DNA of 64,000 nucleotides, from the UHGV virus genome UHGV-0141541; one strand, 5' to 3'. Shown one piece after another: positions 15,823 through 55,090 of this stretch; the first letter of the stretch is position 1, and the number at the start of each line of letters is the position of its first letter. The notes beneath the pieces were generated by a model, which worked only from the letters and a program-made list of their open reading frames with translations, had not been told where the DNA came from and made no database searches. The position numbers and the translations under genes are program-made. The stretch is from a virus.

Positions 15823-15842
15823 TTTTTTTAAGGAGCTTAATC

Positions 15843-16073
15843 ATGTTTGTTCTTATCGCTGGCGTTAACGTCCATAACGAATATTATGTTAATCGCATCG
15901 CTGGGATCGCTGGTTACGCTGGGCGCGCAGTCGAGCTTATAGATGAAACAACGCGCAAAATTGACTTATTGAGCGACCAGGAGCGAAAAAAAGCAGACGT
16001 GAACGACGCTGATATATTTTTAATGTTAAAAGCGTTTGTAGAAATGGGATTTGAAATCAGTTTACATAAATAA
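15843..16073 (+). CDS. hypothetical protein (cassette gene 3)
   Basis: 76 aa; RBS AAGGAG; AT-rich. Confidence 0.5.
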   Translation: MFVLIAGVNVHNEYYVNRIAGIAGYAGRAVELIDETTRKIDLLSDQERKKADVNDADIFLMLKAFVEMGFEISLHK

Positions 16074-16078
16074 AATCG

Positions 16079-16103
16079 AGCGCCCACTATGGGCGCTTTT
16101 TTC
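16079..16103 (+). terminator. intrinsic terminator
   Basis: GCGCCCACTATGGGCGC hairpin followed by TTTTTT. Confidence 0.6.
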
Positions 16104-16123
16104 GTTTCCAATACTTCCACCAT

Positions 16124-16149
16124 AACGCGCCATCATTGGCGCGTTTTTT
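16124..16149 (+). terminator. second tandem intrinsic terminator
   Basis: ACGCGCC-ATCATT-GGCGCGT hairpin followed by TTTTTTA. Confidence 0.6.
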
Positions 16150-16559
16150 ATTGTCTTTAGCTCACTCCAACAACATAAAAATAAGCGCCAAAATAACGCC
16201 ATAGACGCGCTTTTATATCCTTGTCAGTACATACCCATTACTTAACACATTAACGCGCTTAAAATGAGTTATATTGCGCTATAACGTATGGCTAATCATT
16301 AATTTTTATTCTTGCTATGTGATCCGCGTTTATTTGTCGGCGCGGATCGGCATTTTGTTTTGTTCCGTATCCGCTCGCGTATTATGTGCGCGTGATTTTT
16401 CACATAATCACACCACTTAATCACGTATGTGATTACGCTACGAAAGAAATCTGGATGTCTCAGGCGACGAAAGTCATCATAATTTTCCCCGCTCACCTGT
16501 CCGACAACCGCTGGTTGGATTCCACCAGCTTCCCGATGTTTTTTCTACACAAAGGCGAA

Positions 16560-19342: not shown

Positions 19343-19375
19343 AAACAACATGTTTTCTTATTGGTGTTATTATCG
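19343..19375 (-). promoter_or_regulatory. example of recurrent dyad motif family 1 (AACAAnTTGTTTTCT-TATTGG-N-TAATTATCG)
   Basis: AAACAACATGTTTTCTTATTGGTGTTATTATCG immediately upstream of the 19330 start; near-identical copies listed in findings. Confidence 0.5.
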
Positions 19376-19689
19376 TAATAACGCACAGGCGAAAAAGGAT
19401 TTTATTCCGGTGAATGTTGTTTTGGCAGTGAGTTTTCAGGTTCAGTACCGAGTACACTTTTTACATTATTCTGATTTAGTGGCCGAAAGTGGCTGGTGGG
19501 TAGAATAATCCTCTCCCCGGAAACCTACTGAAATCGATTGTGACCCGTTGGCTGTCTGGCACAATTACGCTGTAACTGGGTATTCAGAGGGAGTCCAACG
19601 GTAAGTTAGTCCGCCTGCACGTGAGCGCCTCTCTTCTTCCCGCACATTACAGGTGGGTAGCTGCAACTCTCCCTATCGCTATACCGGTA

Positions 19690-19830
19690 CGCCGCCGTTC
19701 CTGAACCGGCATCGAGCCTTTTCCCGAAACCCACACAGGCAACTCGACCGTTTCCCTGAAAATCCCCAGCCGTTCCCCGAAGGCAACCCAGCCGTTTCTG
19801 TAGCGGGATGCAGCCTTTTCCCTGTATGGA
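19690..19830. repeat. iteron-like direct repeats, consensus RCCGTTTCCCGAA (6 copies)
   Basis: copies at about 19693, 19715, 19745, 19767, 19789 and 19811. Confidence 0.6.
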
Positions 19831-19859
19831 CCGAAGGCTAACCGTAGGGGTGTTACGGG

Positions 19860-20780
19860 GGGATAAAATCAGGAGTTGAATAAATACGAAAAAGGAGGCG
19901 ACACCCCTCCTTCCCTCCCCACTTATACATACCTGGCTTCTTCGCTATACATGTTGTGTTTTCTTCGTGTTTTATCTGTCTCAACCTCTCTATAGGCGTT
20001 AATGCTCACTCCTTCCAGAACGTTCTATACGGCGACTATTTCTGTTGGTGAATTGGGTGTGTTGTTCTCTCTGTCGGTGTATGTGGTTTCGTTCGTTTTG
20101 CGGTGGTTCTTCTATGGGGTGTTCTCGTCGTTTTGGTGATTGTTCTTCTCCGTGTATGGAGTAATGGCAGGTGGGCGATTCCTTTCGTTATTGTGTTTGA
20201 GTTGTTTGTCTGGAGTGCGTGAAGGGCTTTTGTAGTTATTCGTGTATTGGGTAATGGCGTTTCCCGTGATTGTTATGTTTCGTGTCTTTTGGGATTGAGA
20301 GAAACCTTGCGGTTACAGGCTTCGTTGGGGTTTCAGCGGTTCAGGTGTTTCTTCGCTGTTTGGGTAATGGCGTGTCGTGGGTATCGCGCGTATGAATGTT
20401 TTCGGATTGCCTGTGAAAGTTAGGTTGGTTGTCCGGTAGCCTGGGGAGAAGAGGTGGGTCTTTTCGGTAGCCTGCCATAAAGAGGTTGGTTGTTTTGGGT
20501 AATGGCATATGTGTTATTTGGTTGTTTTGTTATGCCTGAAAATAAGTTGTTTATATGGTTGTGTAACGCAACGGGAGCGATTTTGAGCGTGTGTTTTTGT
20601 TGGTAGTGTGTTGAGTCGTCTGTGGTGAAATTTGGACGCTGTGGCGCTATCTGCTGCGTAGAATTACGGGTATAAGAAGTGATGTGTGATAACGTCAATT
20701 TTTTAGACCAAATCGGGAGAAAGCGTTGATGTTTCGTTGATCTGTTATTTAGTTGTTTTCTTATTGGTATAAACAACCAT
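19860..20780. other. GT-rich noncoding tract with internal repeats (no credible ORF)
   Basis: strong G+T excess on the given strand; repeated GGGTAATGGC (about 4 copies) and a ~60-bp unit shared with 17259-17320. Confidence 0.5.
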
Positions 20781-27728: not shown

Positions 27729-28222
27729 AGTAGTGATCCTGTCTTAACAATGCTGGACTTTAAAAGTAGTGGTAAGTGTTTAAGTCACTACGCTTGCCAG
27801 CATGGTTAATAAAGATCAACTGTCATTGGCAGGTAGTTCGACTTGCTGTCTTTTAGGTCACTTACAGCCTTGGCAATCAGCTCCGATACCTAAGATACCA
27901 GAATGGCCGATTTTAGCAAGACGAATAAATGATGCTTTCAGCTAGCCATGTCCTAGCATGGCCAGATTTTGGGTGTTCGTATTTATTTCATTGACCAGCA
28001 TTATAATCGTTAATCTGGTTACTCGGAGACGGGCTGCAACATCGAGCGCAGCGCGTGAAGGTGGAAGGATAAAAGTTGGCAGTTATCTCAGCTACCCGGT
28101 CACTCTCCCATGAAGTAGTTCTGAACCGGATTAGAGAAATGCAAAACGATAACAGAGGCTAAATCGAGGTAGAAAACACATTATTTAAGGCCACTAATTG
28201 TGGCCTTAAAGGGGAGAGATGC

Positions 28223-35665: not shown

Positions 35666-36256
35666 CTATTTGTTATAAACAAAACCAATATCTTTCTTGT
35701 GAGGCATATCTGCTGCTGAAAAAGCTGCGATCTTCGCGAGTCGATCACATATTTCATTTTCACGATGCCCGGCGTGACCTTTAACCCACTTCCAGCGAAC
35801 ATTATGTCGACTTGCGGCCTCATCCAGACGCTTCCACAGATCAACATTCTTTACCGGTTTTTTGTCAGAAGTCATCCATCCATTGCGTTTCCACCATTTC
35901 ATCCACTGTGTCATGCCGTTTTTCAGATACTGGCTATCAGAGTGCAAAATAACGTTGCATGGATATTTCAAACGCTCCAGCCCGATAAGTGCCCCCATCA
36001 TCTCCATGCGGTTATTGGTGGTGCTATGAAAACCATCTGAGAACTCGCGTTCCTCACCACGATACTGGAGAACGATACCGTAACCGCCCGGGCCACCCGG
36101 ATTTTTAAGGCAAGAGCCATCACTAAAGATTTTCACGGTTTTAAGCTGGGGATTGAACTCTACGACAGGCGTTGTGGGATTGGTGCGGGGAGAATTTTTG
36201 TTTTTGTCTTTTTTGCGAGTTTTTGCTTGCGATCGGGCTGGTGTCTTCGTCGTCAT
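35666..36256 (-). CDS. rnhA: ribonuclease H (RNase HI family) with basic N-terminal extension
   Basis: FSDGSC...GGYG...TNNRMEM...SDSQY...VKNVDLW...VKGHAGH..NE.CD pattern closely matches RNase HI; start set at MTTKTP (RBS AGGAG). Confidence 0.85.
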
Positions 36257-36837
36257 ATAAACTCCTGAATCAAGCGCCGCGCCGATTTTTCCTCGCGCGT
36301 GCGCACACGCGTGCGTGTTAATAATTATTAAAATAAACAAATTACTTCCCAGAACAGGTTTTTATAAACCTGAACTGAACGAACGAAGTGAGTGAAGTTC
36401 ACCTCGAACGAAGTGAGAGGTTGTCTTTTCAGGTAATACTCTCCCAGGGAGGTGAGTATAAAATTCCTCACCAACCTGGTCGTTTCATAACCTGAAAAGC
36501 TATGGTCTAAGTCTACTGCCAGCTTAGACTTGGGAAGTTATGGATGACAGCACCCCAGAACCGAGATCTTCCCACACTTTATGAAGGGGAGTACTGGATT
36601 CAACCTCTCGAAACACCCCAGACTCGACAATCATAAAGTGACCCTTGTCTCTGCTCACTTTGGTTCCCCCTTCCCCGACACCTATACGGCACCGGTTCTA
36701 CGCTGGTAGTGAGCTTTTTTAAACCTGACGCCAGTGACGCTTACCCCCACCCATCAGGTCGAGCCTCCAGTCTACGACTGGAAACTATCAGATCTTAGCA
36801 CTTACAATTCACTTTATGAATAGTTTGTACTTATCTA

Positions 36838-37068
36838 TCATTGTGATTGATTATTTTCTCGACCATGTAGTTGAACATTCAAGGCAAACACCTCATTGAT
36901 CAACTCACCTAAAAGCTGTTCAACAAGTTCGCGATGCTCGCCAAGATGCAAGCACTTAATTGCCCACTCGTACAAGTTGAAAGCCTGCTCACGATCTTTC
37001 ATCATTTCACGAGCCTGGGCCAGAAAATCGCTCTCTACGAGCGCAACGACATTAGTCGGGTATGACAT
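36838..37068 (-). CDS. hypothetical small protein
   Basis: ORF track 36838-37092; likely start MSYPTN; 76 aa. Confidence 0.4.
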   Translation of the reverse strand: MSYPTNVVALVESDFLAQAREMMKDREQAFNLYEWAIKCLHLGEHRELVEQLLGELINEVFALNVQLHGRENNQSQ

Positions 37069-37173
37069 GTTGGTTTCCTTAAAGTGGTTCATAAAATCGA
37101 TTTTAAAGCGTCTGGGAAGGGGGTCTAGTGGATTCTGTAGTGATGTTCAGGTCTGGGAGTCTCTGATACAAAA

Positions 37174-37233
37174 CAGCCTGCTTCCGTATATTAATAATTA
37201 ATATGTAGTTATTTATATATACAGAAGCAGGCT
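37174..37233. promoter_or_regulatory. IR-flanked AT-rich element (copy B)
   Basis: AGCCTGCTTC ... GAAGCAGGCT arms around a ~40-bp AT-rich core; near-identical copy at 8125-8185. Confidence 0.5.
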
Positions 37234-37254
37234 AATTACAGACGCCAGAACAAA

Positions 37255-37848
37255 CTAAGCAGCCTTCTTTGATGGTCTTTTTTTCCTGATCACATTCGCA
37301 GGATCATACCCTCCCAGACTTTTCATGACGTCCAAAGGGATCTTGCTTATAGAGTGCCCAGCGTCCTGACAGAATCCTCGAAAAACAACGAGCATACTGC
37401 CACCTGGGTTGATGTTTACTTCTACCTGACCCAGATTGACGTCAGGCTCGACAAACGCTACGCGGCCACCAGACAGAATAATCGTCTCATTCGCACACTC
37501 TGTTGCACGCTCATACCACTTTGTATCTAGGGATTGAGGAATTAGCATCACTGTTGTAACTCCGCGAGCCTGCTCACGTATAGCCGCATCAATCCAGGGG
37601 GAGATTTTGGAGTAGGGTGGATTGAGGAAGGCAATTGTACCTGGCTGTCCCCATTCAGATTTCAAAGCATCACGCTCAACGCCTATGAAATTAGGCAGCT
37701 TTGCATTGTCCTTGTTGCAGGCAACGTCAACATCAAATGTCACTCCAAGATAACGTTGAATGGCAGAAAACAGCCAGTCAGGTGTTCTCCAGAGGTCACG
37801 AAGAGAGTTGTCGCGCTTTCGCTGTTTGATTTTTTCGGCTGCAATCAT
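37255..37848 (-). CDS. dam: DNA N6-adenine methyltransferase (phage Dam-type)
   Basis: 197 aa; WRTPDWLF, FDVDVA, FLNPPY motifs typical of small phage Dam methylases. Confidence 0.75.
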   Translation of the reverse strand: MIAAEKIKQRKRDNSLRDLWRTPDWLFSAIQRYLGVTFDVDVACNKDNAKLPNFIGVERDALKSEWGQPGTIAFLNPPYSKISPWIDAAIREQARGVTTVMLIPQSLDTKWYERATECANETIILSGGRVAFVEPDVNLGQVEVNINPGGSMLVVFRGFCQDAGHSISKIPLDVMKSLGGYDPANVIRKKRPSKKAA

Positions 37849-54297: not shown

Positions 54298-54298
54298 T

Positions 54299-54830
54299 AT
54301 GCTGTCAGCGGTGAAATGTATGCTATCAGCGGCTATTTTCCTGAAAAGTATGCTGTGAACGGTTAAAAGATATGCTACCAGCGGTATAGTGAGATAAACG
54401 TATGCTGTGAGCGGTTAATCATCTATCACCACTCAATGCTCTGTCATACCTCCCCAGTGGTTACTAACCTCGAAGAGTGCATTCCATAAAGGTTTGCGCT
54501 CACTAACATTCTATTGCCATTGCGCTGATTGCTTGTAGTGAAAGGCATTTATTGCCTGCTGCTCTCTGATAGAACGTATGCTGTCAGCGGTGTTTTATTG
54601 AGGAATTTTTGTTTGGATATGCTATCAGCGGTAATTAATGGTATATGTCAGACCTTCGTATGCTGCCAGCGGTAATTTTGTTCTGGTTATACCCATACCG
54701 GGACATATTATTCATGCAATGTCTTAAGTATGCTGTCAGCGGTAAAAAATCGAGTAAAGTATGCTGTGAGCGGTGAGATAGACTCTCGATATGCTATCAG
54801 CGGCAGTTGATTGTGTATGCTGTCAGCGGT
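54299..54830. repeat. iteron array downstream of rep (about 12 copies of TATGCTGYCAGCGGT)
   Basis: copies at 54299, 54319, 54349, 54371, 54401, 54577, 54617, 54658, 54729, 54760, 54789 and 54816, irregularly spaced. Confidence 0.8.
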
Positions 54831-54877
54831 GACGACTATGAAATATGACTGCGGCACGTGCCGCAGTCAGTTTGCAT

Positions 54878-55090
54878 TTAGTGTATTTTCTTCAACAGAC
54901 CCCAAAGTGTTCCGGCTTTTGTAGTCAGTTTTCCTGTTTCTGGATCGTACATACGCCATTCACGCCGCTGGTGGACGATATACCCATCTTCACGTTCCAG
55001 ACGCTCAAGAATGCCAGGCTGCTTGAAACCCTTAGCACGCCAGTATCCGGTTGTTTTCTCGATTTCCAGACCTGCCAGTGTTAATGCCAT
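54878..55090 (-). CDS. hypothetical small protein
   Basis: 70 aa; followed by perfect palindrome GACTGCGGCAC/GTGCCGCAGTC at 54848-54869. Confidence 0.4.
   Translation of the reverse strand: MALTLAGLEIEKTTGYWRAKGFKQPGILERLEREDGYIVHQRREWRMYDPETGKLTTKAGTLWGLLKKIH

Follow-up and report, generated by a model that had tools for sequence, protein, structure and literature searches.

A large structured RNA of an apparently undescribed class in SSU5-like phage-plasmids of Enterobacteriaceae

Large, intricately folded RNAs are rare in bacteria and phages, and those known are often ribozymes, sensors or self-assembling particles. ROOL and GOLLD are large ornate RNAs of phages and prophages with an unknown function (PMC12286853; PMC5737381), and both have been shown by cryogenic electron microscopy to form homo-oligomers (PMC12286853). 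They represent the nearest known kind to the element described here, an RNA of ~445 nucleotides (nt; positions 36342-36786, minus strand), designated type-1 RNA, which is encoded within a gap (36257-36837) in a 64,000-nt stretch of viral DNA (UHGV virus genome UHGV-0141541; this whole stretch is referred to below as the window). The existence of a large structured RNA at this locus is strongly supported, and its class is apparently undescribed: no published account of it was found in the literature on SSU5, phage-plasmids or pHCM2 in combination with non-coding RNA or small RNA, and it is absent from a Klebsiella paper that deals with an SSU5-like plasmid.

Like ROOL and GOLLD, type-1 RNA is phage-encoded and several hundred nucleotides long, with many helices, pseudoknot-type pairs, high conservation and no coding role; being phage-borne, non-coding, longer than 400 nt and composed of multiple domains with long-range pairs, it is an ornate RNA in kind. 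However, it belongs to neither family, as it matches neither of the two Rfam models, and it is shorter (~445 nt, compared with ~600-800 nt or more). Its hosts also differ, type-1 RNA being carried by phage-plasmids of Enterobacteriaceae, whereas ROOL and GOLLD are associated with Firmicutes, rumen or marine phages. Furthermore, unlike ROOL and GOLLD, it lies away from tRNA islands (the window is without tRNA) and has a fixed position after a gene for a 76-amino-acid (aa) protein and usually before rnhA.

Three other systems were compared. In ColE1, RNA II is matured by RNase HI. Type-1 RNA resembles the RNA II/Rop arrangement in that a structured transcript of ~500 nt (here predicted) follows a constitutive-type promoter, an RNase HI gene adjoins the RNA and a gene for a small helical protein is present in the module. 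Unlike ColE1, however, it is without an RNA I homologue or antisense unit, its would-be origin is poorly conserved, a protein-based plasmid replicon is already present and the small protein has no match to the Rop fold. The immunity RNAs of P1/P7 (c4), P4 (CI) and N15 (CB) measure ~70-80 nt, act by antisense pairing and vary between lineages. Type-1 RNA is likewise phage-plasmid-borne, with variants that differ between lineages, but it is six times larger and has no complementary target of at least 13 nt in the 64-kb window. Finally, a non-coding RNA region is required for prophage replication in the mycobacterial phage-plasmids Alma, LadyBird and RedRock (PMC7157519). The present locus is similar in being a non-coding region of ~400-500 bp in a phage-plasmid (its transcription being predicted), whereas the mycobacterial elements have no rep protein and carry their RNA beside parABS; in SSU5-like elements, rep and par are located elsewhere and the RNA resides in a DNA-metabolism operon, and the two RNAs would not be expected to share sequence.

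Conservation, coding potential and folding of the type-1 RNA

The gap corresponds exactly to the interval between rnhA (35666-36256, minus strand) and the 76-aa gene (36838-37068, minus strand), in agreement with an initial sequence-only reading, which had placed a structured, open reading frame (ORF)-free region between an RNase H gene and a small gene. The 621 bases spanning the gap exhibited 100 % identity to Escherichia coli plasmid pECOH89 (NC_023916.1) and 87-99 % identity to Salmonella phage SSU5, Escherichia phages PhiR41_1 and Cyrano and several Klebsiella phage-plasmids; the source element is an SSU5-like phage-plasmid. Pairwise comparison with four diverged relatives revealed that the core (36341-36762) retains 88-95 % nucleotide identity, compared with 72-77 % for rnhA, the small gene and dam and 46-73 % for the segments flanking the core on both sides. 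The most conserved DNA of the neighbourhood is thus a non-coding core rather than a protein gene, and the RNA sequence is under stronger purifying selection than the protein genes around it.

Conservation of the gap extends to 687 PLSDB plasmids, 677 of them non-mobilizable, whose hosts belong to eight or more genera (Klebsiella, Escherichia, Enterobacter, Salmonella, Citrobacter, Cronobacter, Shigella, Kluyvera and Raoultella), and the RNA is present in 12 phage records. It also occurs in 232 of 5,426 complete E. coli genomes (~4 %), where the NCBI pipeline annotates nothing beneath the match. A 21-mer scan of viral contigs yielded 80 loci, which are of the SSU5 type throughout apart from one hit (L026, equivalent to L053). 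In this case, the 21-nt invariant block is matched exactly (L026:6290-6330) inside a 442-aa ORF, with unalignable flanks and an unrelated context; the match was rejected as a chance occurrence, ~0.2-0.7 of which would be expected, by estimate, in a collection of that size. When one genome per species was searched with a two-block pattern, the only matches were in Buttiauxella gaviniae and two Kluyvera, while relatives of the small protein contributed loci L097-L101, all of type 1 (a seeming domain deletion in L099 proved to be a run of N in the assembly). Type-1 RNA is confined to SSU5-like phage-plasmids of Enterobacteriaceae.

A coding role for the gap was rejected, since all seven ORFs that it contains (30-48 aa, both strands) are broken by frameshifts or stop codons in relatives, which bears out the earlier description of the region as ORF-free. 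An Rfam 15 scan at gathering threshold, covering the whole window and families including ROOL, GOLLD, OLE, HEARO, RNase P, tmRNA, group I and II introns, 6S, RNAI, Sok and pRNA, returned no match anywhere in the window. A permissive scan of 36100-37300 produced only chance-level microRNA (miRNA) and small nucleolar RNA matches, mostly on a hairpin at 37166-37232, and relatives L003 and L090-L092 had no Rfam match at E<=0.1. Neither tRNA nor tmRNA was detected in the window by ARAGORN, and no paralogues of the RNA are present within it. Of the grounds named beforehand for abandoning the candidate, neither non-conservation nor membership of a known RNA family nor a protein gene in relatives was encountered.

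Folding of 36341-36790 favoured the minus strand, for which a free energy of -168.5 kcal/mol (z=-5.44) was obtained, as opposed to -137.9 kcal/mol (z=-3.06) for the plus strand; for neither strand was any of 100 shuffled sequences as stable. The same asymmetry was observed when 21 sequences were folded jointly by RNAalifold (-239.9 for the minus strand versus -210.6 for the plus strand). Predicted-pair cells comprised 285 G-U and 25 A-C combinations on the minus strand, compared with 128 G-U and 92 A-C on the plus strand, a pattern that fits a minus-strand RNA in which G-U is tolerated and A-C avoided.

Alignment folding of 56 distinct minus-strand sequences gave 96 pairs, 30 of which display compensatory double changes. 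The consensus model has 19 helices with 141 pairs in total, and across the 56 variants 97.9 % of its cells are paired; the minimum-energy fold of the single sequence recovers the same helices. Double changes were found in 30 of the 141 pairs, compared with 14.1 +/- 2.3 in shuffled alignments (none of 500 reached the observed value), and the number of double-change cells was 196, as opposed to 38 in shuffles. In controls where partners were slid by one to three columns, only five to ten double-change pairs and 36-49 % pairing remained. The comparative alignment that the sequence-only reading had suggested thus confirms helices across relatives, and its proposal of a structured non-coding RNA is upheld by conservation, covariation, strand asymmetry and a conserved promoter. 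Compensatory pairs, a strand-specific signal and the lack of a conserved frame, all observed here, are among the features generally expected of a structured non-coding RNA gene.

Architecture, promoter and 3' flank

The ~445-nt core (36342-36786, minus strand) is supported by its conservation, covariation and strand asymmetry. Helix 1, the 5'-terminal hairpin (36763-36785, minus strand), has sequences that are wholly unlike between lineages (CCAGTCGTAGACTGG, GGCAGATACATCTGCC, TTTCGACCTGAATCGAAA and others), yet always forms a hairpin, with double changes in four of its six pairs. It is followed by the 5' domain (helices 2-6; 36653-36760, minus strand), which consists of a G-rich hairpin (36722-36760), an A6 linker and a three-way junction that contains GGGGAAGGGGGAACC and is closed by GCUCACU/AGUGAGC (36708-36714 with 36653-36659). 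Compensatory changes were identified in helices 2 and 3, for example from GCUCAC/GUGAGC to GCCCAC/GUGGGC, as well as to CCUG/CAGG.

For the central domain (helices 9-16; 36425-36640, minus strand), the consensus and the single-sequence fold agree. It comprises two long hairpins (36575-36640 and 36425-36499), a helix (36531-36537/36568-36574) enclosing a small hairpin, and a further hairpin at 36505-36529; double-change pairs number five in helix 9, three in helix 11, five in helix 14 and two in helix 16. A long-range pairing of the pseudoknot type is predicted between GAGAGGUUG (36601-36609, minus strand) and CAACCUCUC (36415-36423), which are perfect 9-nt complements with near-invariant arms. 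This putative pairing competes with helices 8 and 10 of the nested model, and its comparative support is a single compensatory event, a G:C to U:A change at locus L100.

The 3' domain (36344-36423, minus strand) holds the longest invariant run of the RNA family. It is composed of an invariant block (CAACCUCUCACUNCGUUCGAGG), a tetraloop hairpin, a second CUUCGUUCG repeat, a hairpin at 36349-36378 and a closing helix, ACUUC/GAAGU. The tetraloop hairpin reads GAGG-UGAA-CUUC, and GAGG-GAAA-CCUC in the Cronobacter group. G-runs (GGGUGGGGG and GGGGAAGGGGG) are present in the RNA and are followed by an A/T-rich stretch and then by a GC-rich alternating tract.

The inverted and direct repeats previously listed for the gap are all present, one string containing a wrong base, and most of the inverted repeats correspond to helices of this one large minus-strand RNA. 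They were located at 36357-36372 (AGGTTTTTATAAACCT), ~36389-36399 (GTGAAGTTCAC), 36451-36456 and 36467-36472 (GGTGAG and CTCACC) and 36509-36530 (the hairpin TAAGTCTA/TAGACTT). The direct repeat CGAACGAAGTGAG (36380-36392 and 36405-36417) represents the two CUCACUUCGUUCG copies on either side of the tetraloop hairpin. A GC palindrome was indeed found at 36294-36317, although the reported string was one base off, the actual sequence being CGCGCGTGCGCACACGCGTGCG; it falls (36294-36318) outside the conserved RNA core.

A predicted promoter is situated directly 5' of the core. In the window, a -35-like hexamer, TTCATA (36815-36820, minus strand), which matches the consensus, is separated by 17 nt from the extended -10 element TGcTAAGAT (GTGCTAAGAT on the minus strand, pattern TGnTAnnAT; 36792-36801), the whole extending from 36820 to 36792. 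Among 54 unique upstream sequences, a TTtAcn-type hexamer was observed 17 nt 5' of the -10 element in every type-1 lineage, and TGnTAnnAT occupies the same position in 46 variants, with TAGAAT in Klebsiella variants; the segment around these elements is otherwise only 46-58 % identical between lineages. This positional conservation points to a transcription start at ~36786, in which case the RNA would open with a hairpin that is free in sequence and kept in pairing.

On the 3' side of the core (~36342), conservation falls from ~90 % to 62-73 %. A poorly conserved A/U-rich linker (36319-36341, minus strand), in which U-runs are common among lineages, is a candidate site of 3'-end formation. Beyond it lies a segment (36286-36318) consisting of a 25-nt, GC-rich, strictly alternating pyrimidine-purine tract (36294-36318), CCTC and a T5 run. 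Alignment of 49 unique 3' flanks showed that the alternating tract is kept in relatives, differing by transitions only, and that the T5 run reads as A5-10 on the RNA strand, with variable length. The order 3' of the linker is alternating tract, variable A-run, GC-rich hairpin and rnhA ribosome-binding site; the hairpin has a weak U-tract and shows little covariation. In loci L069, L081 and L082, similarity stops at the A-run and different DNA is found beyond it. As a separate observation, the alternating tract between the RNA and rnhA is of a type prone to form Z-DNA.

Flanking genes, downstream cargo and a second RNA

The neighbouring genes are all on the minus strand and form a single long DNA-metabolism array, which includes nrdAB, genes for thymidylate synthase, DHFR and a 3'-5' exonuclease, dam, the 76-aa gene, the gap, rnhA, the gene for TerB and others. 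The 76-aa gene (phrog_5343) always precedes the RNA and was found in 728 plasmids. Its product has no Pfam match, and its AlphaFold2 model consists of three helices (pLDDT 79) without a match below E=5 in a Foldseek search of the PDB; a profile search of PDB sequences gave weak matches to designed helical proteins only. A Rop-like identity of this protein, for which the three-helix model offers no match among solved structures, was rejected as unsupported. The product of rnhA is an RNase HI (PF00075, E=1e-44, residues 41-179), and it was additionally observed to carry a basic N-terminal extension of ~40 residues outside the Pfam RNase_H domain.

Just after dam, a hairpin at 37166-37232 with 17-nt arms and an A/T-rich loop is followed by GUUUUGU on the minus strand; it resembles an intrinsic terminator parting dam from the unit of small gene and RNA. 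All weak miRNA-type Rfam matches map to this hairpin.

Sufficient downstream sequence was available for 79 type-1 loci. The next gene is rnhA in 64 of these and other cargo in the remaining 15, which carry a 207-aa ORF with a Tad2-like (Thoeris anti-defence) gene, a 222-aa ORF, convergent genes or nothing. Tad2-like genes lie downstream in the Cronobacter group, convergent cargo includes a Gabija-like pair (L101), a transposase (L082) and other ORFs (L081 and L104), and Ant- and Rha-type genes are located downstream in the same operon in some relatives. Where the next gene is convergent or absent (L101, L081, L082, L104, L069 and L102), the RNA core is nevertheless intact (at least 88 %).

The DNA just 3' of the RNA can be regarded as a cargo hotspot for defence and anti-defence genes, the side of dam, small gene and RNA being fixed. 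Examples are Tad2-like genes in L003 and L097, a convergent OLD-TOPRIM and UvrD-helicase pair in L101, the transposase in L082 and a type I restriction R subunit in L092.

In 30 Klebsiella plasmids, a more distant version of the small protein (~50 % identical) is accompanied by a gap of 570-650 nt at the same place. This gap contains a different RNA of ~480 nt, designated type 2, for example at L090:3762-4243 (plus strand; Klebsiella oxytoca pCAV1099-111) and also in L091 and L093-L096. Six mutually alignable sequences folded better on the gene strand (-293.8 versus -234.1), with 149 predicted pairs, 14 of which are compensatory. Type-2 RNA has its own promoter-like site and 5' hairpin, and a terminator-like hairpin with an A-tract and U7-8 is located inside its 3' part; in L094 and L095, a convergent gene takes the place of rnhA. 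Sequence profiles searched with nhmmer in both directions revealed no homology between types 1 and 2.

When the window is compared with L090, Dam and TerB are 72 % and 82 % identical, whereas the small protein and RNase H are 51 % and 37 % identical and the RNA is unalignable. The small protein thus diverges faster than Dam or TerB, along with the RNA and RNase H, and this drop in identity indicates that the segment of small protein, RNA and RNase H behaves as a faster-diverging or exchanged module. In a separate case (L092:4179-5148, Moellerella wisconsensis plasmid), the 76-aa gene is present with neither RNA type; between it and a convergent type I restriction gene lie a 113-aa ORF and then ~970 nt of non-coding DNA, which could harbour a third RNA type.

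Elsewhere in the window, four stretches of 490-1070 nt each (15823-16558, 19352-20419, 27729-28222 and 54298-55089) have no ORF of at least 80 aa on either strand, and none of them matched Rfam. Host-type housekeeping genes are also carried on the phage-plasmid: metG (full-length methionine-tRNA ligase) and apbC, as annotated in the plasmid record, at ~21.4-24.7 kb (pECOH89 80165-83456).

Likely role and alternative explanations

The gap is best explained as the gene for an independently transcribed, structured non-coding RNA that functions in its folded form, by itself or in association with protein, and we consider this reading probable, if only modestly so. As judged from the sequence, the ~445-nt RNA would be transcribed from its own sigma-70 promoter, starting at ~36786, and would open with a protective 5' hairpin. 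Its 3' end may be generated within the A/U-rich tract (near 36320-36341), either through weak termination or through nuclease processing of a longer transcript that could extend into rnhA. The folded RNA would work in its own right and not as an rnhA switch, since loci with a replaced or reversed downstream gene still carry it intact. Its likeliest partners, in view of the genomic context, would be the 76-aa helical protein (always 5') and RNase HI (usually 3'), both of which diverge together with the RNA as a module. This module is located at the border between the DNA-metabolism operon and the variable stretch of defence and anti-defence cargo.

More tentatively, and with clearly lower confidence, the RNA may form the conserved centre of a tripartite module (76-aa protein, RNA and RNase HI) that is swapped as a unit between phage-plasmid lineages, types 1 and 2 being non-homologous alleles, and that serves an RNA-dependent task new for temperate enterobacterial phages. 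Such a task may be lytic replication from an RNA-primed origin, or the countering or decoying of host defences by an RNA-protein device.

Several observations weigh against an independent folded RNA. The promoter is a match to the sigma-70 consensus only, both RNA ends are predicted positions, and no canonical terminator was found in the type-1 3' flank, either by scanning or by flank alignment. In the absence of a conserved intrinsic terminator, the RNA may be nothing more than the 5' portion of the mRNA for rnhA or cargo, and the presence of rnhA as the neighbour in ~81 % of loci fits a role in cis. The 76-aa model matches no known RNA-binding fold, and the partnership of this protein with the RNA is putative. 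No antisense target was identified, as the RNA has no complement of at least 13 nt within the window and the two 12-mer complements detected correspond approximately to the estimated chance expectation. Finally, covariation derives mostly from few lineages, chiefly the Cronobacter group (~68 % identity), so that independent events are fewer than the cell counts suggest.

The most serious alternative, which we regard as rather unlikely, is a cis-acting leader, i.e. a 5' untranslated region of rnhA and the long same-strand operon that acts on its own transcript; this would cover, taken together, modes such as a processive antitermination element, a stabilizing 5' structure or a sensor. The promoter directly 5' of the RNA, the lack of a clear terminator before rnhA, the frequency of rnhA as the next gene (64 of 79 loci), downstream genes that share the strand for more than 20 kb and the terminator-like hairpin after dam, suggestive of a new transcription unit, are all consistent with such a leader. 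However, a leader or riboswitch would be expected to show a constant same-orientation association with rnhA, and at least four loci have a convergent next gene; the core is kept at 88 % or more where the next gene is convergent or absent, as is also the case for type-2 loci L094 and L095. As other, sometimes convergent, cargo replaces rnhA, the RNA is not simply an rnhA leader. Antitermination RNAs are small (put ~70 nt, EAR ~120 nt), and a 445-nt fold of 19 helices far exceeds known antitermination RNAs or riboswitches. Moreover, the RNA is more conserved than the gene that it would regulate, while the stretch from the RNA to the rnhA ribosome-binding site is the least conserved part.

A primer RNA for lytic replication akin to ColE1 RNA II, which would form a persistent RNA-DNA hybrid to be cut by RNase HI and extended by DNA polymerase, is improbable, though several features speak for it. 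The gene for RNase HI lies next to that of the RNA, and the two diverge in concert; ~500 nt separate the promoter from the A-tract and the structure is conserved, as in RNA II; and the G-runs are followed by the A/T-rich stretch and the GC-rich alternating tract. RNA-based prophage origins of ~400-500 bp are known from mycobacterial phage-plasmids (PMC7157519), and plasmid-mode replication of SSU5 elements uses a rep protein (repB marker; bioRxiv 10.1101/2025.09.12.675607), leaving the lytic origin unassigned. Conversely, Rfam RNAI was not matched, no antisense (plus-strand) promoter-terminator pair was found over the RNA 5' region, and the would-be RNA-to-DNA switch region is the least conserved part (62-73 %), with a homopolymer of varying length, although an A/T-rich stretch and a GC tract are kept there. 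The absence of an inflection in cumulative GC skew at 36 kb argues against a bidirectional origin at this site and is weak evidence as to a unidirectional one. Furthermore, the RNA persists without rnhA (though host RNase HI could substitute), the Rop-like nature of the 76-aa protein is unsupported and these elements possess a separate protein-based replicon.

The sequence-only reading had also offered a replication or recombination site, for which no direct support was obtained, given the lack of a GC-skew inflection and of an RNA I match and the poor conservation of the 3' flank. One point related to recombination does hold, as the downstream cargo changes at the A/T tract just 3' of the RNA. 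A DNA-level element (a recombination or insertion hotspot, a protein-binding site or a single-strand DNA structure) is nonetheless very unlikely. The exact position of the cargo switch, the adjoining 25-nt alternating tract and the tolerance of G-T pairs in single-stranded DNA hairpins are compatible with it, but a 440-nt multi-helix fold with long-range pairing, 30 compensatory pairs and an inward promoter is not expected of a duplex site, and the cargo breakpoints fall beyond the conserved core. Since 677 of the 687 plasmids are non-mobilizable and not conjugative, leading-strand single-strand promoters are improbable. A hok/sok-type structured mRNA for a small toxic or regulatory peptide, which the ~400-450 nt size, strong structure and long-range pairings recall, is largely refuted, as relatives retain none of the seven candidate ORFs found on the two strands and neither Sok nor any other type I antitoxin family in Rfam was matched.

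SSU5-like phage-plasmids are frequently found in clinical E. coli, Klebsiella, Enterobacter and Salmonella. The host-phage system is tractable (SSU5 on Salmonella LT2 and PhiR41_1 on E. coli K-12), so that function, partners and three-dimensional structure are directly testable, which is harder for ROOL and GOLLD. An unannotated RNA, together with an apparently unrelated RNA in a sister lineage, suggests that genome annotation has overlooked a function carried out by RNA in some of the most thoroughly sequenced bacteria.

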